Positions 35,812-45,327 are shown, counted from the first letter of the stretch. The stretch: DNA of 64,000 bases from Bdellovibrio sp. CG22_combo_CG10-13_8_21_14_all_39_27 (GCA_002786715.1 PCTW01000038.1:206304-270303), one strand, 5' to 3'. Numbers and translations are program-made. Notes: generated by a model from the letters alone, not told the origin.

Positions 35812-36258
35812 GTGATGGCAAAGCTCTTCATCGCTTGTGATCACGCGGCTTACCTTGAAAAAGTTGAGCTCATTAAATTTCTAACCAAATTAGGCCATGA
35901 GGTCCAAGATCTTGGACCTCATTCAGCCGATCGAGTCGATTATCCAGATTTTGCCCGCGAAGTTTGCAAAGAAGTTCAACATGAAAAGGGGCTTGGTATT
36001 CTTTTGTGTGGCTCAGGAATCGGAATGTCGATTGCGGCCAATCGTTACAAGAATATTCGAGCTGCCCTTTGCCGAACGGAAAAAGAGGCTGAGCTTTCTA
36101 AACAGCACAATAACGCTAATATTTTATGTCTTGGTGCGAGAATTAACACTCAAGCAGAACTAGAGAGCATTACAAAAGCATGGCTATTGTCTGAATTTGA
36201 AAAAGGTCGTCATTCAGACCGAGTCGCTAAGTTTAATGATTTAGGAGAGGTCCTCTAA
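35812..36258 (+). CDS. rpiB: Ribose-5-phosphate isomerase B
   Basis: Motifs ACDHAAY and CGSGIGMSIAANR. The start is GTG at 35812 or ATG at 35815. Confidence 0.9.
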   Translation: MMAKLFIACDHAAYLEKVELIKFLTKLGHEVQDLGPHSADRVDYPDFAREVCKEVQHEKGLGILLCGSGIGMSIAANRYKNIRAALCRTEKEAELSKQHNNANILCLGARINTQAELESITKAWLLSEFEKGRHSDRVAKFNDLGEVL

Positions 36259-36965
36259 TGGAACTTCCACGTAAAAAACTTGAGATTCTAGGTTATGCTT
36301 TTATCTTCACCCTTGCCATTCTTGGTCAGTACTTTGCTCGCACAGACCTAGCTTTTTTTGAAGGTACTTATGTTCGTGAAGATTCTTTTATTGAATGGCT
36401 TCAATTTACAGGTTTATTTTTTGGTTTTTTAGTTTGTCTTTATCGAATGATTATTCTCAAGCCATTTCGCAGTTGGACGTTTCTTCTGGGCTTAGCTTTA
36501 CTTGCTTTTCTTTTCTTTTTTGGAGCGGCAGAGGAAATTTCGTGGGGACAAAGAATTTTTGATTTTAAAACACCTGAATGGTTTATGGCCCATAATACTC
36601 AAGGTGAATTCAATCTTCACAATTTAAAATTTGGAAACTTTAAAGTGAACCGAATCATCTTTGGAACTGTTTTAGGAATTATCATTGGATTCTATTTTTT
36701 AATCCTTCCACTTCTTTACAAAAAAATGAAGAAGCTCAAGGATTTTGCAGATGGTTTTGCCATCCCTGTGCCAAAGCTTTATCACATCATCGCTTATATT
36801 CTTCTCGCCATAATTGCTAAGAGTATTCCTAGTCCTAAGAAAGGCGAGATTTTAGAATTTGGTGGGATTTGGATATTTATTCTGATGATTTTTGAACCGT
36901 ATAATCGCGAATTTTTCAGTCGTAAATTAAAGCCTATTCACGAAACGCCGCCACCGCAATCGTAA
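36258..36965 (+). CDS. Polytopic membrane protein of unknown function
   Basis: It has 5-6 hydrophobic helices and a conserved-looking loop, AAEEISWGQRIF. The ATG overlaps the rpiB stop (TAATG). Confidence 0.5.
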   Translation: MELPRKKLEILGYAFIFTLAILGQYFARTDLAFFEGTYVREDSFIEWLQFTGLFFGFLVCLYRMIILKPFRSWTFLLGLALLAFLFFFGAAEEISWGQRIFDFKTPEWFMAHNTQGEFNLHNLKFGNFKVNRIIFGTVLGIIIGFYFLILPLLYKKMKKLKDFADGFAIPVPKLYHIIAYILLAIIAKSIPSPKKGEILEFGGIWIFILMIFEPYNREFFSRKLKPIHETPPPQS

Positions 36966-37655
36966 GACGGCAAAGAGCGCTTCAAAAATAATTCCTCCGG
37001 CCATTTTAGACTGACCATCTCTTCTTTCATAAAAGATAATAGGAACTTCTTTGACGTTGAGTCCACGACTCCAAACTTTGTAATTGAGCTCGAGTTGAAA
37101 AATGTATCCGCTGGAGATGATGTCATCGAGATTAATTGACTCAAGGGCGCGACGGTTGAAGCATTTAAAGCCACCAGTTGTATCAAAAACAGGAATACTC
37201 GTTACAAAACGGGTATAAATTGAAGCCAGATAAGAGAGAAGAAGCCTCTTGAAAGGCCAGTTGATAATACGAATTCCATCGATATAACGAGAACCAATCA
37301 CGAGATCATTGGTTTGAGCAGCTGTTAGTAAATCAGGGATTTGTTTAGGATCGTGAGAAAAATCGCAATCCATTTCAAAAACAAATTCATACTTTCTTTC
37401 AAGCGCCCATTTGAATCCTGTGACGTACGCTGTGCCTAAACCAAGCTTACCTGTGCGCTCAATCATAAAAAGATTATTGGGATATTGCTGTTGGAATTTC
37501 TTAACAACATCAGCTGTACCGTCTGGTGAACCGTCTTCGATAATGAGAAGTGAAATCGCTGGATAAAGAGCAAACAAAGTCGTGATCATTTTCTCAATAT
37601 TATCAATTTCATTATACGTAGGAATGATGATGAGTGTTTGGTGGTAAGGCAGCAA
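36927..37655 (-). CDS. Polyprenol-phosphate mannose synthase-like GT2 (Ppm1/DPM1 type)
   Basis: Motifs IIIPTYNE, IIEDGSPDGT, EMDCDFSHDP and YERRDGQSKM. Confidence 0.8.
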   Translation of the reverse strand: MLPYHQTLIIIPTYNEIDNIEKMITTLFALYPAISLLIIEDGSPDGTADVVKKFQQQYPNNLFMIERTGKLGLGTAYVTGFKWALERKYEFVFEMDCDFSHDPKQIPDLLTAAQTNDLVIGSRYIDGIRIINWPFKRLLLSYLASIYTRFVTSIPVFDTTGGFKCFNRRALESINLDDIISSGYIFQLELNYKVWSRGLNVKEVPIIFYERRDGQSKMAGGIIFEALFAVLRLRWRRFVNRL

Positions 37656-37673: not shown

Positions 37674-38066
37674 TTAGAGACTATTATTGTTTCTACTATT
37701 ACACCCGAGACACCGTTTTATCAAATCTTTGCGCAGTTTATTGGTGGTTTTATAGAAGTAATCAACTGCTTTTTGGCCCATTTTACTATCGAGGAGCCAT
37801 GTCCATTGGGAGACTTTTGGATTGAGTTTTAAAAGCCATTCCACGGCCTCTGGACCGCGATAAATCTTACCTTCGTCACAAATGACATGGACTTCGTCCA
37901 AGCAAGCGTCAGGGTCTAATTCTTTAAAGAGCTCATAAGTTAAGGGAGAGTTGATATCGAAGTAAGAGAGGTTTTCAAAACCCTCTGCTCTTTCGAGAGT
38001 TTGTTTAAAGCGAGTGCACATAGGGCATTCGCCATCATAAAAGAGAGCTGGTACTTTTCTTTCCAT
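37674..38066 (-). CDS. DCC1-like thiol-disulfide oxidoreductase (DUF393)
   Basis: N-terminal motif LFYDGECPMCTRF; 130 aa. Confidence 0.7.
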   Translation of the reverse strand: MERKVPALFYDGECPMCTRFKQTLERAEGFENLSYFDINSPLTYELFKELDPDACLDEVHVICDEGKIYRGPEAVEWLLKLNPKVSQWTWLLDSKMGQKAVDYFYKTTNKLRKDLIKRCLGCNSRNNNSL

Positions 38067-38092: not shown

Positions 38093-39676
38093 TTATTCAA
38101 TACTTAATCTTCTCAATCCTGTGATTTGGTAACGGCGAGAAATAATTTCAAAAATAGGGCGAGACTTATCTTTATTTATTTGAGCTTCTTGTGCCGCTTT
38201 TTCTGCGAAGTCTAGAGATTTAATACTACTACCGCTTGATTTTTGCTTTAGCTTATTAAATGGATTTTGAAAACCTGATGATGAACTAGCTTTGCGTCCA
38301 TAATTGTTTCCACCTGAGAACGAAACAGTTTTAACACCAGAGCTTGAACCTGAGTATTTGGCATAATAGGGAGAGACCTTGCCCGACTCTTGAAATCTAG
38401 CGAGGTATTTACCGGAGCCAGGAACATTGAGATTTGCTGCAGCTAATGTTTTAGCAAAGCTTGATGGAAGCCCCATATTTTCTAGTTCGCTGACGAGTCC
38501 TGCTTTGCTGGATGGTACAGAAGGTGATGTTAACCCGAGTTGATTTGCGGCTTCTTGCATTCTTGATTTATTTCTTGCAGCTCTTTGTCCAGCTGTCGCG
38601 AGAGTGGTTTTTCCATTTTTTAGTTCACCACGAGTAAGAGCTTTAAAGGCATCTCCATCTGGTGATCCTAAAAAGGCATTCCCAAAATTAGTCCCGCCAA
38701 CCATTGAAACAAACTCTTTATCAAAACATGTATTTGAACCTAGACAGCGACATTTTGGATCGGCCTTGAGTTGGTTATCAACACAAGTCATACGAATTGA
38801 TTCTTGAGCGATTTTATTATTGCCAAGATAGGGAGCACAGGCAGAAGTGTCATACATTGTTTCAGGTTGAGCACAGTAACAATCAGTCTCTGTAATTTTG
38901 TTACAATCGCCAGCTCCTGGAAGTTTGTCGGCAATTCCTTTGATCTCATCTGCATATTCATTATTTTTCTTGATTTCACTCATATAAAATGAAGTCATGA
39001 GACCTGCCCCTGCGAGCTTCACCCAATAACTTGTAGTAGGCGAAATACCACCCATAGTTCCCATGTAGACATAACAACCTAATGTTCCGCCCCAGCCAAC
39101 TGCTGCGATAGTTGAAGTTTGCGCTTTGGCTCGATGAGAAGCTGCGGCCTTATAGAGCAAGGTCTTTTGTACGTTTTCGCCTGGTTTGTTGACGCCACTA
39201 ATATTGGATTGTTGCATTTGCTGCATCACTTGACCGGCCATCTCTGTTCCCATGGCCACATAAGCGCAATAATCTTTTTGAGTTTTTTCGTCCTTTGGAG
39301 TGTCTTTAGGCCATTCTTTTGCTCCGTCTGGAGGACTTTTCTCAAATCCGCTTCCAATATTACCTACAATCATAGCGTACATACTTGAGAGCATTTTAAA
39401 CATCTGACTATCGACACCCATAAACTTGGTACGACCTTGACCTTGGCAGGCATTAGGATCATCGAGCTTGGCACATTCTTCTTGCATGGTTCTTTGCGAA
39501 AGTCCTTCGTGAATGAAGGTTTTAGTTTCGTATCTTTCTTGATCGGTCATATCCATATTGTTTGGGTTTTTCGGATCATCTTTTTTATCTTCCGAACCAT
39601 CGTGGCGTACCACTTGGGCCCAAGCGAGTTGAGAAAGTAGGCACAAAATAAGAATCAAAAACTTATGCTTACGCAA
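38093..39676 (-). CDS. Large secreted Cys-rich protein with a Ser/Gly-rich C-terminal region
   Basis: Signal peptide ...LSQLAWA. A central cluster of Cys is present (DCNKITETDCYCAQPETMYDTSACAPY...CVDNQLKADPKCRCLGSNTC), and the Ser-rich tail reads SGSSSGVKTVSFSGG..SSSSG. Confidence 0.5.
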   Translation of the reverse strand: MRKHKFLILILCLLSQLAWAQVVRHDGSEDKKDDPKNPNNMDMTDQERYETKTFIHEGLSQRTMQEECAKLDDPNACQGQGRTKFMGVDSQMFKMLSSMYAMIVGNIGSGFEKSPPDGAKEWPKDTPKDEKTQKDYCAYVAMGTEMAGQVMQQMQQSNISGVNKPGENVQKTLLYKAAASHRAKAQTSTIAAVGWGGTLGCYVYMGTMGGISPTTSYWVKLAGAGLMTSFYMSEIKKNNEYADEIKGIADKLPGAGDCNKITETDCYCAQPETMYDTSACAPYLGNNKIAQESIRMTCVDNQLKADPKCRCLGSNTCFDKEFVSMVGGTNFGNAFLGSPDGDAFKALTRGELKNGKTTLATAGQRAARNKSRMQEAANQLGLTSPSVPSSKAGLVSELENMGLPSSFAKTLAAANLNVPGSGKYLARFQESGKVSPYYAKYSGSSSGVKTVSFSGGNNYGRKASSSSGFQNPFNKLKQKSSGSSIKSLDFAEKAAQEAQINKDKSRPIFEIISRRYQITGLRRLSIE

Positions 39677-39834
39677 GGCGAAACCTCTTTGATTTAGTCC
39701 TCTTCATTTTAACATCTGCTTGATTTCTGGCCTAGTAAGCAAGAAATGCAACTTTTTTCAGGTCATAAAATTGATGAGTTAGAAGATTTTTGTCGTAATT
39801 TCGGATAGTTACAAAATGGGTCCAAAGATTGGCG

Positions 39835-39851
39835 GTTTGACACTGTCAAAC
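39835..39851 (+). promoter_or_regulatory. Perfect 17-bp palindrome GTTTGACA-C-TGTCAAAC, a candidate operator overlapping TTGACA boxes upstream of the DtxR-family gene
   Basis: Read directly from the sequence. It lies inside the longest ORF call (39816), which argues for a downstream start. Confidence 0.4.
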
Positions 39852-39893
39852 TCTAATTTGACGACTATGACAAGATGCTTTAGAACTTCACTT

Positions 39894-40442
39894 ATGACAA
39901 ACAAACATCAAAATCATCAAGAAGATCTGCTTTCCCATTCCATGGTTCATTACCTACTCACTATTCATAAACTTCGTGAGTCAAAAGGTTATGCGCGAGT
40001 TACAGATATTGCGAAAGATCTGGAGCTCACAAAAGGTAGTGTATCAACGGCCATTAATAATTTAAAAAAGAAAGAGCTGGTTATTGAGGAAGAGGATTCT
40101 AAGTTTTTGCTATTAACTCATGCAGGTCATGATGAAGTACATCGCATTTTATCTTCGCGAACTTTACTCTATTACTTTTTGAGAGATTTTGTAGGTGTCG
40201 GAGAAGAATTGGCCGAGAAAGATTCCTGCCAAATGGAACACCTTATGAGTCCGGAAACAAGCCACAAGTTTTTTCAGTTCATGAAAGACTTGGCCTGTTC
40301 ATGTGAAAGAGCTGAAAAACAAGGTGTAAAGCTTCCTAGCCATTTTCAATTTCAAACCGCCCTTGATTTTTGCCAATTCGAAAACATGGATCAATTCTCT
40401 GAGAGTCAAATTGGCGATAAACATCTACCAGAGCAAAAATAA
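39894..40442 (+). CDS. DtxR/MntR-family metal-dependent transcriptional regulator
   Basis: HYLLTIHKLRESKGYARVTDIAKDLELTKGSVSTAINNLKKKELV is the wHTH, followed by the RTLLYYFL..VG..EELAEKDSCQMEH metal-site region. The start is uncertain (39816, 39867 or 39894). Confidence 0.72.
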   Translation: MTNKHQNHQEDLLSHSMVHYLLTIHKLRESKGYARVTDIAKDLELTKGSVSTAINNLKKKELVIEEEDSKFLLLTHAGHDEVHRILSSRTLLYYFLRDFVGVGEELAEKDSCQMEHLMSPETSHKFFQFMKDLACSCERAEKQGVKLPSHFQFQTALDFCQFENMDQFSESQIGDKHLPEQK

Positions 40443-41137
40443 TGTTTTTGAAGTTGCTGATTCTGACTACAATCGTGAATGCTGAAACAGTAAACTTTTG
40501 CTTTGATCGAGAGATTCCTCTTGAAAGAGCAAAAAACGAATTATCTACAATCTCCACTCAAAGCGATCAAATTGATATGCGCCGCGGGCCTCATTGTCTT
40601 GAGGTCACTGTATCGGAATCGAGAATAGAGCTCTTTGATAAATATTTAAGAAGAGTTTTTCCAGGCAAAGTGAGTAAGCGAAATATTTTTTCAGGTTTTG
40701 ATGAACCCAAGCCAATGATTCCTGATTCTCATTGCAATATTGAAATTGAGCAAAAAGGAACTGGAACCTCACAAGGTAATCAGTACAGAGTTGGATCAGA
40801 AAATATGGCCAGACAAACAAACATCAATGAAACGACTTCTTCAAAAATGAGAATGGTTTTGACTAAGGGAAGAACAGGAAGATTAAAAGTTAATGATAGA
40901 GATGTTGAGATCTCCTGTTTTCCTCGAGGTAGGCAATTTCAAGTAGATGTATCAATTGCTCAGTCAAAAGGTTCAGTCGCCACTTCTCTTACGGTGTCAT
41001 CTGGACAGCAAATTGATCTGGGGGATATTGTCGAACAATTCGAAAGAAATGGCAGGTTGCTTGATATTAATCAAGGCGTACAAGTGAACAAAGAGAAAGG
41101 ACAATTGAAAAGTCAGTATTTTCTTACTGTTCAATAG
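40442..41137 (+). CDS. Secreted protein of unknown function, translationally coupled to the DtxR-family gene
   Basis: Signal peptide MFLKLLILTTIVNA. The ATG overlaps the upstream TAA (TAATG). Any resemblance to secretin-type beta domains (TSLTVSSGQQIDLGDIV) is only vague. Confidence 0.45.
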   Translation: MFLKLLILTTIVNAETVNFCFDREIPLERAKNELSTISTQSDQIDMRRGPHCLEVTVSESRIELFDKYLRRVFPGKVSKRNIFSGFDEPKPMIPDSHCNIEIEQKGTGTSQGNQYRVGSENMARQTNINETTSSKMRMVLTKGRTGRLKVNDRDVEISCFPRGRQFQVDVSIAQSKGSVATSLTVSSGQQIDLGDIVEQFERNGRLLDINQGVQVNKEKGQLKSQYFLTVQ

Positions 41138-42854
41138 TGGGTCTTAAATAATAGTGCGAAATAAATTTTTGACCATTGGGATTCCAGCCCTCGCGTGTGA
41201 ATAAGTACCAAAAATAATTTTTAAAATTCATTTTTTCAAAATCTGGCCACCACCAGTAGCGAAGCGGAATAATTTCTCGGGCATGAGTCGATGAAAGTTT
41301 TTGCTCCCATTCTAAGTCCGGTAAATCTACGAGCACATGCTGATAGTTGCTAGCATCGCTTACATCAGGGTTAAATACGTAGCCCTCTTTTCCATAAAGA
41401 AACCAAGTGAGAGGCCAAGTATTACTGTCTAAGGCGAGTATAGAACTATGAGTTTGTTCTAGTTCTTGGGCGAGACTATTAGAGAGATCTTCATAGCTTT
41501 TACTAGTGTGCACTTGGGAGATTAATTCCTGTGCTTGATGGGAATCGAGGAAATTAATTTGAATTGCGAGCAGAATATTTACTGAGAGAAAGATCACCAT
41601 CGCAATAGATGAAGGCCAACGACCGATAAGCTGTCTGATATAAATCCAAAAATAGATATAACCAACGACGATAAAATACATTGTGAGCCAAGGAACTTTT
41701 TCGCCCAGATAAGAGTAGGTAAAAAGCAGAGAGAAAAAGGAATAACTAAGTAGCGCCAAGTCTTGTCTGCGATCAAGTAAATGCTTTGTCGTAAAGCCAA
41801 TTCCTGAGATGAGAAAAATCCAAAAAAGATAGGCATCGAGAGGGATCTTGAGTTTTAGCCAAGTTGAAAGAAACTCTCTTGAAAAGTGATGTTCCATGCC
41901 CCAATGAGTAAGGACTCCAAGCAAGATGACTAATAGATAAGTGAATTTCGTTTTTAACGTTGATGAGAAGAAATTGTGAATATAATAAATGACCATTAAA
42001 AAAAGAAGTGGAATTTCGTACCAACTTAAAAAGAGAAATGAATAGGAAAAGGGGCCAGATATTCTTTCTTGATGGTGTTGTTGAACCCAATAAGAGAGAC
42101 TCTTTCGGTAAAGACCGTCGAGAATTCCCTCGGGATAAACAAAGCCAGCAGAATAGAAATAAGCACAGGAGGCAATCGCTAAAACAATTCCGAAAAAGAG
42201 AGGAATGGGAGCGCTTGAAAACCAGGGAAATATTCTTGAGAGGTAGGGTTCAACTGATCTTTTAGTGGAAATGATATACTCATAAATGAGAAAAATAAGA
42301 ATTAATAGTGCATGTACATAACTATTTTCTTTCACACAAAAAGCCAAACCTAAGGAACACCAGAAAAGAAGTTGGCGAGACCAATCGTGAATGAGGACGG
42401 TCGAAATGACCAGGGTGCAAGTAAAGGCCAGCATCAAAAGGTCATGTCTTAGAAATCGTCCCCAATAAATTAAAGAAGGAGAAAGGGCCAAGAGGAGAAT
42501 GATTTCAACAGTTCTTCTATTTCCCAACTTTTGACGAAAAAAAAGAGGAGCGATAAGGGGAACAAGTGAAAAGAGCATAGTGAGCAGGCGCGCACTCCAT
42601 TTGGAAACGCCAAAAAAATGGTATGACCAAGGAAGGAGATTATAAAGAAGTGGCCCATGTAACATGGGATCGTAATGATAAAAAAGATTTTTGGCATCAG
42701 TGTAATAATAGAGTCCATAAGTGGCATGGAGGGATTCATCATGATGGAACGGTCGCACATCAAGATTATGATAGCGTAAAAGAAAACCAAGTCCCAAAGC
42801 CAAAAGGGTCCATAAAACGAAAGGTATAGTTAGTTTTCTTTCAATTGTTCTCAT
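41124..42854 (-). CDS. GT-C fold membrane glycosyltransferase, TIGR03663-like (PMT/ArnT-related)
   Basis: It has about 13 hydrophobic helices. The N-terminal loop carries HHDESLH (DE) and MLHGPLLY (HGP), which are the invariant residues I recall for TIGR03663. Its start overlaps the upstream stop by 4 nt. Confidence 0.7.
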   Translation of the reverse strand: MRTIERKLTIPFVLWTLLALGLGFLLRYHNLDVRPFHHDESLHATYGLYYYTDAKNLFYHYDPMLHGPLLYNLLPWSYHFFGVSKWSARLLTMLFSLVPLIAPLFFRQKLGNRRTVEIILLLALSPSLIYWGRFLRHDLLMLAFTCTLVISTVLIHDWSRQLLFWCSLGLAFCVKENSYVHALLILIFLIYEYIISTKRSVEPYLSRIFPWFSSAPIPLFFGIVLAIASCAYFYSAGFVYPEGILDGLYRKSLSYWVQQHHQERISGPFSYSFLFLSWYEIPLLFLMVIYYIHNFFSSTLKTKFTYLLVILLGVLTHWGMEHHFSREFLSTWLKLKIPLDAYLFWIFLISGIGFTTKHLLDRRQDLALLSYSFFSLLFTYSYLGEKVPWLTMYFIVVGYIYFWIYIRQLIGRWPSSIAMVIFLSVNILLAIQINFLDSHQAQELISQVHTSKSYEDLSNSLAQELEQTHSSILALDSNTWPLTWFLYGKEGYVFNPDVSDASNYQHVLVDLPDLEWEQKLSSTHAREIIPLRYWWWPDFEKMNFKNYFWYLFTREGWNPNGQKFISHYYLRPTIEQ

Positions 42855-44206
42855 GCTTGAAAAGTCAGCTCCTTTTCATTATTTTCCATTCTATTTACCC
42901 ATTCCACTCCCTGCATAAAAGAATGATCTTGATTACTCACCTCATACTTCCAACCACCAAATCTGCCTCTAGAGAAAATCTGAAGGTCATCTAAAGTTGG
43001 AATTATTTTCTTTAAACGCGTATCGCGATCAAGAAAAGGAGTAGGGTAGCCATGTTCTGCAAAATATTGCCATTTCGAAACGATTTGATCTTGAGCTGAA
43101 ATTAGTTTGGTATTAATCAGTCCTTGAATAACTTCTTCGACTAATGCATCTCGACGAACTTTTTTAAAATGAGACTCGCTCACTTCAACCATAAGTGAAA
43201 AATAGGGCCCACCTTTGTCGGGGACATTCATAGGACTATAGTTTGAAAAAAGTGTTACTCGATAGAAAGGACAATTATCTTCAGGGAAATACATCCAGCA
43301 CTTGGTTGAAAGTTCGTGATGTGGCTTGCCCTTGATTCCTATGCCAATGATATGTGTTGATGAATATTTAAAGTCTGCCGCTTCTTTGACTATTTTTTGA
43401 TCGAGTCCAATGATTTTTTTTGTCAGATTATCTAAGGGCATCGTTGATAGAATGTGTTCATATTGAATTTGATTCCCATTGTCGGTATTTATTGTCTTCT
43501 CATGAGCATGAATACTTTTTACCGCTGTATTAAGACGAATTTTGTCAAAGCCAATTTTTTTACTTAAGGATTTCCAAATAGCGCCAGTCCCACCTGACTT
43601 TGGAAAACGAAACATATTATTGGGTCCCCAGGAAACATCATCTCGATTGAGTTTAATGTTTTCTTCAATTCGCTTGATATCAATGGTGCTTACTCTTTCA
43701 CCAACCCAAGAACTATTCATTTGGTGAGGTTCATAGGCCCAAACTTTAAAATTATAGGGAAATAGAAAATGGCGAGCGATTCCTGTTCCAAATTGATTAA
43801 GAATCCAATCATGGAAATTTTTTATTTCTCGTTGTGGATTATTTTTTAATTCTTTTAAACATTCGTCGCGAATTTCTGTAGGTAATCGGTGAATATTATT
43901 TTGAAAAGGATAGGGAATAAATCGATTGTGCATCCAAACCCAAGATTCTCGCTGATGATCAAGCCATCCATCGGTACCTAATGCAATATCCATTGCTTTA
44001 TCAAAATAAGGATAATGTGAAAATTGAACATGACCGCCGATATCCCAAGTGAATCCCTGTTCATCAATGAAACTCGTGGCCAAGCCTCCATAAAAAGAAG
44101 ACTTTTCCAAAATAATAAAATCGTGAATTCCTAATTCTTTAAGACGATAAGCTGCTCCGATTCCAGTCGGACCACAGCCAATAATGGCGTATCGAAATTT
44201 TTCCAA
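42851..44206 (-). CDS. glf: UDP-galactopyranose mutase, eukaryote type (FAD-dependent)
   Basis: The FAD motif is IIGCGPTGIGAA. Long blocks are near-identical to my recollection of fungal/kinetoplastid UGM: GGHVQFSHYPYFD, PYPFQNNI, PYNFKVWA, WVGERVS, WGPNNMFRFPKSGGTGAIW, YSSTHIIGIGIKG, KCWMYFPEDNCPFYRVTLFSNYSP, HGYPTP and SRGRFGGWKYEVSNQDHSFMQGVEWV. Confidence 0.8.
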   Translation of the reverse strand: MEKFRYAIIGCGPTGIGAAYRLKELGIHDFIILEKSSFYGGLATSFIDEQGFTWDIGGHVQFSHYPYFDKAMDIALGTDGWLDHQRESWVWMHNRFIPYPFQNNIHRLPTEIRDECLKELKNNPQREIKNFHDWILNQFGTGIARHFLFPYNFKVWAYEPHQMNSSWVGERVSTIDIKRIEENIKLNRDDVSWGPNNMFRFPKSGGTGAIWKSLSKKIGFDKIRLNTAVKSIHAHEKTINTDNGNQIQYEHILSTMPLDNLTKKIIGLDQKIVKEAADFKYSSTHIIGIGIKGKPHHELSTKCWMYFPEDNCPFYRVTLFSNYSPMNVPDKGGPYFSLMVEVSESHFKKVRRDALVEEVIQGLINTKLISAQDQIVSKWQYFAEHGYPTPFLDRDTRLKKIIPTLDDLQIFSRGRFGGWKYEVSNQDHSFMQGVEWVNRMENNEKELTFQA

Positions 44207-44214
44207 GCTCTTCC

Positions 44215-44994
44215 CTAAGCAACATTATCGAGATTTGTACTCTTCTCAATATTGTCGAGGGAATTGATTCTCTCGTAAAGAGAAAGTTTGAAAGAAAGGA
44301 CTTGGTAGAGCGAACGTGCGCAAGCTTTAATTAAGCCCCAGCTGATAAGCGAAGGTTTACCCGAGAGCCTTTTTTGATGTTTCACTGGATATTCTGGAAA
44401 TGATTTGAGTCGAATACTTGATATAACTGATAAAAAAACATTCGGTGCAAATAAGTCTGGGGGAAGAACAGAAAGGGAATTTCTTAAAAAATCACTTCTC
44501 ATCAATCTAAATGGTGTATTGGCATCTTTAATTGAAACTTCGAAGAGATAATGAAGAATTCCTTTTAAAAGTCGGCTAATTACTTTTCTCTTAAAGGGAT
44601 CTTGTCTTTGAGCTCTTATTCCAACGAGAAAGGGAGAGGTTTTTCTGTTCTCCCACAGTTTTTCAAAATCTGTTGGATCAAATTGATCATCACTGTCAGT
44701 CTGAAAAATCCATTGAGGATGAAAAATGAGTGCTTGGTGATAACCCGCCATGATGGCCTTACCATGCCCTTCATTCTCCTTATTTAAGATGTATAATCTT
44801 GGATTTTGCTTTTGAAAAACTTCGAGCGCCGCTAAGCTGCCATCGGTTGAGCCATCGTTGACGACGACCATGGTGTAAGAGAGTCCCATGCTATCAAATT
44901 GAGCAGACCATTTCGATAAAACATCAAGAATACAAACTTCTTCATTGTAGACTGGCATGACCAAACAGACAGAAGTTCCTTTATGGATATTCAT
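44215..44994 (-). CDS. GT2 glycosyltransferase of the polyprenyl-phosphate sugar synthase type (GtrB/ArnC/DPM1-like)
   Basis: Motifs LVMPVYNEE, VVNDGSTDGS, QTDSDDQFDP and the C-terminal HQKRLSGKPS. The start was trimmed to MNIHKG (44994); the upstream 64 codons lack coding character. Confidence 0.72.
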   Translation of the reverse strand: MNIHKGTSVCLVMPVYNEEVCILDVLSKWSAQFDSMGLSYTMVVVNDGSTDGSLAALEVFQKQNPRLYILNKENEGHGKAIMAGYHQALIFHPQWIFQTDSDDQFDPTDFEKLWENRKTSPFLVGIRAQRQDPFKRKVISRLLKGILHYLFEVSIKDANTPFRLMRSDFLRNSLSVLPPDLFAPNVFLSVISSIRLKSFPEYPVKHQKRLSGKPSLISWGLIKACARSLYQVLSFKLSLYERINSLDNIEKSTNLDNVA

Positions 44995-45327
44995 GTGAAT
45001 TAACCTTGATTCCGCCACCAAAATCGGTGCAACTTTAATTCTAAAACAACGAACTTTAGTTATGTAGCGGGCAAAGCTGTCCCACTGGGCACTAACTATT
45101 GAAAATTTTTGAAGAAAACAAGAATGATCGGATAAGGAGACAGTTGAGAAAAATGATTTTTTAATTTCAATGTCACGGCGTGCCACACAATCAGACTTTT
45201 TGTCTCAATCTTTGTCCAGGAACTTATAGCAGCAAACTTGTTATTGGGAGTACCTCTGGTATTATGGGTCGCAAATGGGTCTTATTTGACCTTTAATTTC
45301 ATCAATATTTAAGTCCAGGAGAATGAT

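Follow-up and report, generated by a model that had tools for sequence, protein, structure and literature searches.

The closest described relatives of the operon reported here, the systems GtrA/GtrB/GtrC, ArnC/ArnT, GacI/GacL, CsdC/CsdD/CflA and mycobacterial PpgS/Rv3779, likewise combine a family 2 glycosyltransferase (GT2) acting as a polyprenyl-phosphate sugar synthase with a polytopic GT-C protein. For galactofuranose (Galf), the arrangement described in eukaryotes is import of UDP-Galf into the Golgi, where galactofuranosyltransferases use it directly, and the 2020 review of Galf enzymes that sets this out mentions no lipid-linked or polyprenyl donor (PMC7278926). We analyzed a stretch of 64,000 nucleotides from Bdellovibrio sp. 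CG22_combo_CG10-13_8_21_14_all_39_27 (GCA_002786715.1, PCTW01000038.1:206304-270303), called the window throughout, which encodes on its minus strand a GT2, a long-type UDP-galactopyranose mutase (UGM) and a polytopic protein of the TIGR03663 family (Table 1). The evidence establishes the identity of the mutase, the class of the GT2, the GT-C fold and conserved motif of the third protein, and the structure and conservation of the operon. That the three genes together form a three-step route that puts Galf on an extracytoplasmic acceptor by way of a lipid-linked donor is a reading in which our confidence is slightly better than even.

A preliminary description, made from the sequence, had the three minus-strand genes packed as an operon, and all three open reading frames (ORFs) were recovered in that arrangement. 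Between the mutase gene and the GT-C gene there is a 4-nucleotide overlap (42851-42854), as had been described. The mutase begins with a TTG (44206) preceded by GGAAGAG, and its distance from the stop of the GT2 gene was counted as 8 nucleotides where 9 bp had been given. The longest GT2 ORF (45186-44215) begins with GTG and encodes 323 residues, and the public gene call also reaches 45186; we regard the ATG at 44994 as the better start because it has AAGG upstream and because the resulting 259 residues fit the lengths of the orthologs (235-270 residues). The additional 64 residues (44995-45186) have no counterpart in any ortholog and are probably an over-call. A scan for terminators inside the operon gave no signal above shuffled sequence, and promoter-like sites in a consensus scan were no more numerous than in shuffled sequence; the operon promoter is presumed to lie in the divergent intergenic region listed in Table 1. 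Nineteen public contigs, one of them from GCA_002787595.1 ("Bdellovibrio sp. CG12_big_fil_rev_8_21_14_0_65_39_13"), code for an identical mutase protein, and orthologous Bdellovibrionota loci, in which the preliminary description had proposed to look for synteny, keep the triad at 35-60% protein identity. We therefore take this to be a real conserved operon and not a chance arrangement.

The flavoprotein encoded by the middle gene had been described as a eukaryote-type UGM and not the short bacterial Glf type, which the searches bear out. Against PDB sequences it matched the Trypanosoma cruzi UGM (4dsg; E = 1.3e-145, query residues 6-440; 52% identity) and, over its full length, the Aspergillus fumigatus UGM (AfUGM; 3ute; E = 5.9e-130; 45% identity), whereas short bacterial Glf structures gave no match at E ≤ 0.01 in the same search, and the classical Glf model TIGR00031 scored only 18.4 bits (E = 8e-4), below its cut-off of 303.75. 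The sequence blocks that had been singled out as shared with fungal and kinetoplastid enzymes (PYPFQNNI, PYNFKVWA, FPEDNCPFYR..FSNYSP and SRGRFGGWKYEVSNQDHSF) are all present. We compared the active site by mapping the 20 AfUGM residues tabulated in PMC3322874 (H63, F66, R91, F158, M159, Y162, N163, W167, R182, P206, N207, W315, Y317, R327, E373, Y419, R447, Y453, N457 and Q458) through the A. fumigatus alignment. Nineteen of them are identical, the sole change being M159 to Leu; the essential arginines R182 and R327 correspond to R171 and R316 of the window mutase, and the histidine loop is identical as well. The identical positions include every residue specific to the eukaryotic class (F66, R91, N163, P206, N207, W315, Y317, N457 and Q458), which together set eukaryotic UGMs apart from the Escherichia coli, Klebsiella, Mycobacterium and Deinococcus enzymes (PMC3322874). 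Across 11 bacterial homologs, the UGM active-site residues are mostly invariant.

The one competing identity for this protein is an amine oxidase or protoporphyrinogen oxidase, in which case the operon would have nothing to do with Galf. Pfam does return Amino_oxidase as the best match (1.6e-19), next to NAD_binding_8, and relatives carry public names such as "amine oxidase," "protoporphyrinogen oxidase" and "FAD-dependent oxidoreductase." The Pfam models identify only the generic fold, however, and we attribute the match to the shared FAD-binding fold and nothing more; the scores of protoporphyrinogen oxidase models, at 17-24 bits, fall below the cut-offs of those models (98 to 560 bits), and neither the full-length matches to solved eukaryotic UGMs nor the conserved active site agrees with an oxidase. 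The preliminary description had allowed for a protein that clusters with such oxidases and lacks the UGM substrate-binding Arg and Tyr residues, and what was found is a protein that keeps the UGM active site at all positions but one. We thus reject the oxidase identity, which we consider extremely improbable, and conclude from sequence that the flavoenzyme is a true long ("eukaryote-type") UGM.

For the GT2, the proposed class of polyprenyl-phosphate sugar synthase is one on which profiles, structure comparison and conserved residues agree. Its Pfam match is Glycos_transf_2, and its best matches among NCBIfam models and PDB sequences are ArnC, followed by GtrB, PgfS, PpgS and DPMS. A profile built from 39 orthologs aligned with ArnC at 1e-29 (positions 5-224), with GtrB at 1e-20 (positions 4-227) and with DPMS at 3e-14 (positions 4-236), whereas other GT2 enzymes (chondroitin synthase, TagF, GalT1 and similar) align only with the N-terminal nucleotide-binding half, over ∼110-130 residues. 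An AlphaFold model of the protein (predicted local distance difference test (pLDDT) 93.4) had as its top 22 Foldseek matches only ArnC, DPMS or GtrB, with TM-scores of ∼0.7. The mycobacterial galactofuranosyltransferase GlfT2 was absent from the top 50 of the same search and also missing from the top profile matches, and an ordinary GlfT-like galactofuranosyltransferase is not supported on these grounds. The GtrB paper points to D94/D96, R122, D157 and R200, and it describes R122 and R200 as shared universally by enzymes with lipid-phosphate acceptors. In the window GT2, D94/D96, R122 and R200 correspond to D100/D102, R127 and R209, all of them invariant in the 39 orthologs, and the invariant D157 of the family aligns with the Asp of the ArnC motif GDYGCMLR. 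Of the two motifs pointed out beforehand, the DxD stands (D100-x-D102), and the C-terminal R..G.S proved to be one residue longer (R209-L-S-G-K-P-S). By its modeled fold, its full-length homology and both lipid-phosphate arginines, the GT2 is assigned to the ArnC/GtrB/DPM1 class of polyprenyl-phosphate glycosyltransferases.

One feature counts against the GT2 working as these enzymes do, namely that the C-terminal transmembrane helices of ArnC, GtrB and archaeal DPMS have no equivalent in it: the 259-residue form has no hydrophobic segment or transmembrane helix, and its model ends in two amphipathic helices. The polyprenyl-phosphate GT2 class does contain members without transmembrane helices, human DPM1 and mycobacterial PpgS among them, so that such helices are not strictly defining for the class, and the window enzyme would have to act at the membrane surface.

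The third protein had been put forward as a PMT-related GT-C protein with the DE and HGP signatures of TIGR03663, and both the assignment and the signatures were recovered. It matches TIGR03663 with 203.7 bits (cut-off 126.25; model positions 10-431 of 435) and PMT_2 of Pfam weakly (1.7e-8), and its family comprises 1114 representative clusters at E ≤ 1e-30. The structure model is a confident one (pLDDT 90.7, predicted TM-score 0.90), and its best Foldseek matches are to ArnT (5ezm/5f15; E = 1e-6 to 1e-5, TM-score 0.45-0.51), with ALG9, Pmt4, STT3, PimE, EmbC and AftB as further matches, these being glycosyltransferases that use polyprenyl-phosphate sugars or lipid-linked glycans; transporters, by comparison, reach TM-scores of only ∼0.1 (for MurJ, E = 0.08 and TM-score 0.11). 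A positively charged N-terminus and the first transmembrane helix (residues 10-28) are followed by H37-H38-D39-E40, at the start of the first extracytoplasmic loop, where GT-C enzymes hold their catalytic acidic residues. This HHDE motif is invariant in 40 close homologs and in 33 relatives at 21-30% identity, and so are H66-G67 (H66-G67-P68 in the window protein), R89, S125-P126, K175, W256, R264, E385, P388-W389-L390 and W480.

Membership in TIGR03663 also brings in another function, since NCBIfam now names the family "flippase activity-associated protein Agl23," and the last step could thus be flipping, not transfer. Agl23 of Haloarcula hispanica is presented as a putative Glc/Gal-P-dolichol flippase and partner of the dolichyl-phosphate (Dol-P)-hexose synthase Agl22; yeast rft1-delta was rescued by it, and in proteoliposomes M5GN2-PP-Dol was flipped by the purified protein (PMC11182771). 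The flipping by purified Agl23 and the low TM-scores to ArnT both speak against a transferase. If the window protein were likewise an Agl23-type flippase or scramblase, here for polyprenyl-phosphate-Galf, the first two steps of the route would be unchanged and the transferase would be encoded elsewhere; the window has no GtrA-like flippase gene, which would fit. Yet the model has a GT-C fold whose best matches are glycosyltransferases, a scramblase has no obvious need for an HHDE motif at the GT-C catalytic position that stays invariant down to 21% identity, and PMT_2 GT-C proteins hold the equivalent position in other phyla. We therefore consider a flippase acting in place of a transferase quite unlikely, although the two roles are not mutually exclusive. 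Some catalytic role, at the least, is suggested by its fold and by the invariance of the acidic loop. To judge by sequence and model, the third protein belongs to TIGR03663 and has a GT-C fold, and it is probably a periplasmic glycosyltransferase that uses a lipid-linked sugar, transferring rather than flipping it.

The route that we favor would then begin in the cytoplasm, where the 451-residue mutase, on its sequence identity, would turn UDP-galactopyranose, or UDP-Galp, into UDP-Galf. The membrane-peripheral GT2, which is the sole cytoplasmic glycosyltransferase in the operon able to consume UDP-Galf, would move Galf from this nucleotide sugar to undecaprenyl phosphate (Und-P) to give Und-P-Galf; we infer the polyprenyl-phosphate-Galf product from gene context, and the acceptor lipid is presumably Und-P and not dolichol phosphate because the system is bacterial. 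Und-P-Galf would next flip across the inner membrane. No ORF of 110-160 residues with three to four transmembrane helices, as expected of a GtrA-like flippase, was found in the 64-kb window, and none in the orthologous loci; because no such gene lies nearby, the flipping might be carried out by the GT-C protein itself, as has been reported of Agl23, or by the product of a gene at another site. On the periplasmic face, the TIGR03663 protein would use Und-P-Galf as donor, with the HHDE loop past the first transmembrane helix as its predicted catalytic site. For the acceptor, a polysaccharide or a secreted protein is a candidate, as is lipopolysaccharide (LPS) or lipid A. If the GT2 and the GT-C protein were both inverting enzymes, the linkage formed would be expected to be alpha-Galf.

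The arrangement of these genes in other genomes, which gives the strongest support for their coupling, was followed in two samples, one centered on the mutase (the best 80 genome loci, 77 of which had enough flank) and one centered on the GT2 (the best 80 of at least 567 metagenome loci, 67 of them informative). In 63 of the 77 mutase-centered loci, the gene directly upstream of the mutase, on the same strand, is a GT2 ortholog (36-45% identity); these loci come from Bdellovibrionota, Bacteroidota (Cytophagales, Chitinophagales and Flavobacteriales), Verrucomicrobia and Planctomycetia. Overall, the GT2-mutase pair is found again in hundreds of genomes of bacteria. A TIGR03663 gene behind the mutase is confined to Bdellovibrionota/Oligoflexia (L007, L013, L014, L024, L057, L064, L082, and additionally L090 and L091). 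Elsewhere it is a non-orthologous large polytopic protein that adjoins the GT2-mutase pair: PMT_2 GT-C proteins in L011 (two copies), L050 and L078, a 770-residue protein with at least nine transmembrane helices in L089, and, in 26 Cytophagales loci, one or two copies of an unclassified polytopic family of ∼580 residues (c3; for example L077:3000-4745). The logic set out in the preliminary description, a GT2 and a UGM supplying a polytopic protein, accordingly recurs in other phyla with partners that are not orthologous, and this repeated placement beside polytopic envelope enzymes is as predicted for a lipid-linked donor that feeds periplasmic transferases. Judged by the protein lengths of mutase and GT2 relatives, no fusion of the two (a Rosetta-stone protein) was evident. 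The mutase loci without this GT2 contain classical 350-residue GT2 enzymes instead and resemble ordinary polysaccharide clusters.

The c3 proteins (550-600 residues) are encoded upstream of Acyl_transf_3-GT2-UGM, often as tandem duplicates, and share the invariant motifs P-x-W-D-D just past the first transmembrane helix and E-H-R ∼30 residues further on. Searches with Pfam, NCBIfam and PDB profiles and hhalign comparisons with the TIGR03663 and PMT_2 sets returned nothing for them; c3 may be an undescribed GT-C-like family, the P-x-W-D-D past the first helix being the sole hint. The c3 loci also carry Acyl_transf_3, MBOAT and AlgX-like acyltransferase genes.

Further features were noted at these loci. 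In L038:8499-12323, L019:8519-13786 and similar Cytophagales loci, GT2-UGM is followed by a conserved 900-residue protein of unknown family and an AlgX/AlgJ-like protein of 340 residues, and in some Cytophagales genera an MBOAT protein also comes after GT2-UGM. The AlgX/AlgJ-like and MBOAT genes, together with the upstream Acyl_transf_3 gene, suggest an O-acylated, Galf-bearing extracytoplasmic glycan in Cytophagales. At L011:8378-10416, on an uncultured Bdellovibrionales contig, a second pair stands downstream of GT2-UGM-PMT_2, made up of a DPM1-like GT2 and then a 455-residue flavoprotein of amine-oxidase fold that shares only 24% identity with the mutase; this pair may represent a parallel module of GT2 and mutase-like flavoenzyme for another sugar. 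Another variant of the GT2 and polytopic pair is found at L087:6001-8141, where a GT2 ortholog (40% identical to the window GT2) overlaps by 4 nucleotides a polytopic protein of 478 residues with at least six transmembrane helices and no family match, and where the mutase is absent.

The GT2-centered sample supplies the main evidence against a dedicated Galf route. Only 36 of its 67 loci have the mutase directly after the GT2, and the rest are the same four architectures without it: M3 peptidase-MFS-GT2-TIGR03663-c26-DtxR of the Bdellovibrionota type on metagenome contigs (L100, L103 and L117), c3-acyltransferase-GT2-c4-c5 of the Cytophagales type (∼16 loci), GT2-PMT_2 of the Chitinophagales type (L160), and, in an Oligoflexia genome, a GT2 followed by TIGR03663 beside a DUF2298 protein (L092:4198-7025). 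TIGR03662 is recorded as often accompanying TIGR03663, and it may be the same family as DUF2298. The GT2s of the mutase-less loci are 70-82% identical to their nearest mutase-linked counterparts and fall into the same 65%-identity clusters. Since the same clusters occur with and without a mutase, the Galf specificity of the GT2 can be drawn from context but not read from the enzyme itself, and the GT2 may use another UDP-hexose while the mutase serves other enzymes.

Taken to its conclusion, this would make the GT2 and the GT-C protein a generic hexose pair (Glc, Galp or Man), with the mutase feeding cytoplasmic galactofuranosyltransferases elsewhere, for example in an O-antigen or exopolysaccharide cluster, and the occurrence of the same mutase type in ordinary polysaccharide clusters, beside the classical GT2s, is in keeping with it. 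It does not readily explain why the mutase takes the identical place after this very GT2 in most mutase-centered loci, across at least four phyla, why in the window it is translationally coupled on both sides, or which enzyme it would serve there, the GT2 having no cytoplasmic competitor in the operon; mutase-less genomes, moreover, could carry a mutase elsewhere. On these grounds we think a generic hexose pair unlikely. Either the mutase of the mutase-less cases is encoded at another site in the genome, or the mutase was inserted into an older unit for hexose decoration made up of the GT2 and the GT-C protein, and in the second case the donor specificity of the GT2 may differ or be relaxed. 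Within the proposed Galf route, the GT2 and polytopic pair would be the ancestral unit across bacteria and the mutase a facultative insert directly after the GT2 that presumably switches or defines the sugar delivered.

The similarity of the mutase to eukaryotic enzymes had been taken as a hint of horizontal transfer, and a recent acquisition from a eukaryote, such as prey-associated or environmental fungi or protists, would account both for the 45-52% identity to fungal and kinetoplastid UGMs and for the low similarity to classical Glf. The distribution of the enzyme speaks against it. In a scan of one genome per species, the long-type mutase was found in at least 578 bacterial genomes of at least 10 phyla, including Bacteroidota, Bdellovibrionota, Leptospiraceae, Gloeobacterales, Verrucomicrobia, Lentisphaerae, Planctomycetia, Caldilineaceae, Polyangiaceae, Chthonomonadaceae and Gemmatimonadales, and the window mutase is closer to enzymes of other bacterial phyla (55-60% identity) than to those of T. 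cruzi or A. fumigatus. A protein search gave at least 8000 related clusters, the top 120 of which are 56-100% identical; the named clusters among these are all bacterial (Bacteriovoracaceae, Aquirufa, Leptospiraceae, Siphonobacter, Spirochaetota and others), and almost all carry one of the oxidase or oxidoreductase labels quoted above. In a neighbor-joining tree with 100 bootstraps, the window mutase clusters with other Bdellovibrionota, and the eukaryotic UGMs, represented by just two sequences rebuilt from PDB alignments, form their own bipartition in 100 of 100 replicates. The GC content of the operon (0.37-0.38), finally, is the same as that of its surroundings. On distribution, this tree and GC content we reject a recent transfer from a eukaryote, which we regard as very improbable. 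A 2013 review divides UGMs into "prokaryotic" and "eukaryotic" classes with 14-18% identity between them, a division in the light of which the bacterial breadth of the long type seems under-appreciated.

In the full-text literature that we searched, no description of a polyprenyl-phosphate-Galf donor (Und-P-Galf or Dol-P-Galf) was found, in agreement with the earlier statement that no characterized pathway of this kind was known in a Gram-negative bacterium. A wider proposition, to which we give somewhat less than an even chance, is that Und-P-Galf is a real, undescribed donor, made by a widespread GT2 without transmembrane helices that a long-type UGM supplies, and employed by GT-C or polytopic enzymes of various kinds to decorate the envelopes of Bdellovibrionota, Bacteroidota, Planctomycetota and Verrucomicrobiota, with the mutase as a plug-in cassette that switches an ancestral hexose pair to Galf; the "eukaryotic" UGM class would then be primarily bacterial, and the eukaryotic enzymes possibly descended from it. 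If this were true, there would be a second route to Galf besides its direct delivery from UDP-Galf, the only mode in the literature searched, and the short list of polyprenyl-phosphate sugars would grow by its first furanose case apart from mycobacterial arabinan synthesis. What is called the "eukaryotic" UGM class is in any case a large bacterial family that is routinely mislabeled as amine oxidase or protoporphyrinogen oxidase. Enzymes that are regarded as specific to eukaryotes, and that are being pursued as drug targets against fungi and parasites, are thus abundant in bacteria, and the mislabeling affects both predictions of Galf from metagenomes and arguments about inhibitor selectivity. 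The data are also relevant to the question of flippase or GT-C transferase function in TIGR03663/Agl23 proteins, and the clusters with and without a mutase are natural controls for substrate specificity.

Several neighboring genes in the window deserve mention (Table 1). The secreted 231-residue protein, for which no Pfam or NCBIfam family was found, has orthologs (cluster c26) that adjoin the TIGR03663 gene in Bdellovibrionota, whether or not the locus includes the mutase. It may be associated with the system, conceivably as partner or acceptor, or its position may reflect no more than conserved gene order. A second GT2, DPM1/PpgS-like (Pfam 6.5e-28; matches to PpgS, AglJ and Dol-P-hexose transferase), overlaps convergently by 39 nucleotides with the gene of a membrane protein that has no family match. 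At 79-84% identity in related genera, this GT2 is conserved far above the operon studied here, and with the membrane protein it may form a separate polyprenyl-phosphate sugar system. The secreted Cys-rich protein of 527 residues, which has a Ser-rich tail and no family match, is conserved at the same place in Bdellovibrionota loci (cluster c31), where its neighbors in the window are a DtxR/MntR-type repressor and a DCC1-like thiol-disulfide oxidoreductase.

Table 1. Genes and intervals of the operon and its surroundings, in window coordinates
Feature	Position	Strand	Remarks
GT2 gene	44994-44215	minus	259 residues, ATG start; ArnC/GtrB/DPM1-like class
Long-type UDP-galactopyranose mutase gene	44206-42851	minus	451 residues, TTG start
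TIGR03663 (Agl23 family) polytopic GT-C-fold protein gene	42854-41124	minus	576 residues
Divergent intergenic region, operon to M3 peptidase gene	44995-45327	.	Basis: gene positions
Secreted protein, no Pfam/NCBIfam family	40442-41137	plus	231 residues; convergent with GT-C gene, 3' overlap 14 nucleotides
DtxR/MntR-type repressor	39816-40442
Secreted Cys-rich protein	38093-39676	minus	527 residues
DCC1-like thiol-disulfide oxidoreductase	37674-38066
Second GT2	36927-37655	minus	242 residues; DPM1/PpgS-like
Membrane protein	36258-36965	plus	235 residues; at least four transmembrane helices

Set against the Gtr- and Arn-type systems, the window operon shares with GtrB and ArnC a GT2 of the same fold, with full-length homology and the two lipid-phosphate arginines, and with ArnT the nearest structural match of its GT-C model. 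It differs in having a furanose-forming mutase between the two genes, in a GT2 without transmembrane helices, in a GT-C protein that belongs to TIGR03663 instead of the GtrC, ArnT or YfhO families, and in the lack of a GtrA-type or Wzx-type flippase gene nearby; the lipid-linked sugar here would be Galf, for which no precedent was found in the literature searched. The Agl22/Agl23 system of H. hispanica has in common with the window a TIGR03663 protein paired with a DPM1-like GT2. Agl23 is described as a flippase, but the window protein, by its fold and motif, looks like a GT-C transferase. The window GT2 is not an ortholog of Agl22, the haloarchaeal Dol-P-hexose transferase model NF041391 being unmatched, and the mutase has no archaeal counterpart.

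With the eukaryotic UGMs of A. fumigatus, T. cruzi and Leishmania major, the window mutase shares the domain layout and nearly the whole active site, but it is ∼50 residues shorter than AfUGM, without the insert around AfUGM 345-368, and it is bacterial and operon-encoded together with membrane glycosylation genes. To our knowledge, the only well-known delivery of a furanose from a polyprenyl-phosphate donor is that of mycobacterial decaprenyl-phosphoryl-arabinose (DPA) with the Emb and Aft GT-C enzymes, of which EmbC and AftB are among the structural matches of the window GT-C model. DPA is made from phosphoribosyl pyrophosphate by epimerization on the lipid and not from a nucleotide furanose by a GT2; sugar and organisms differ, and the genes are not homologous beyond the GT-C fold. 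We class the window operon as a variant of the established scheme in which a GT2 and a GT-C protein carry out extracytoplasmic glycosylation, and what is new relative to that scheme is a built-in furanose-forming mutase.

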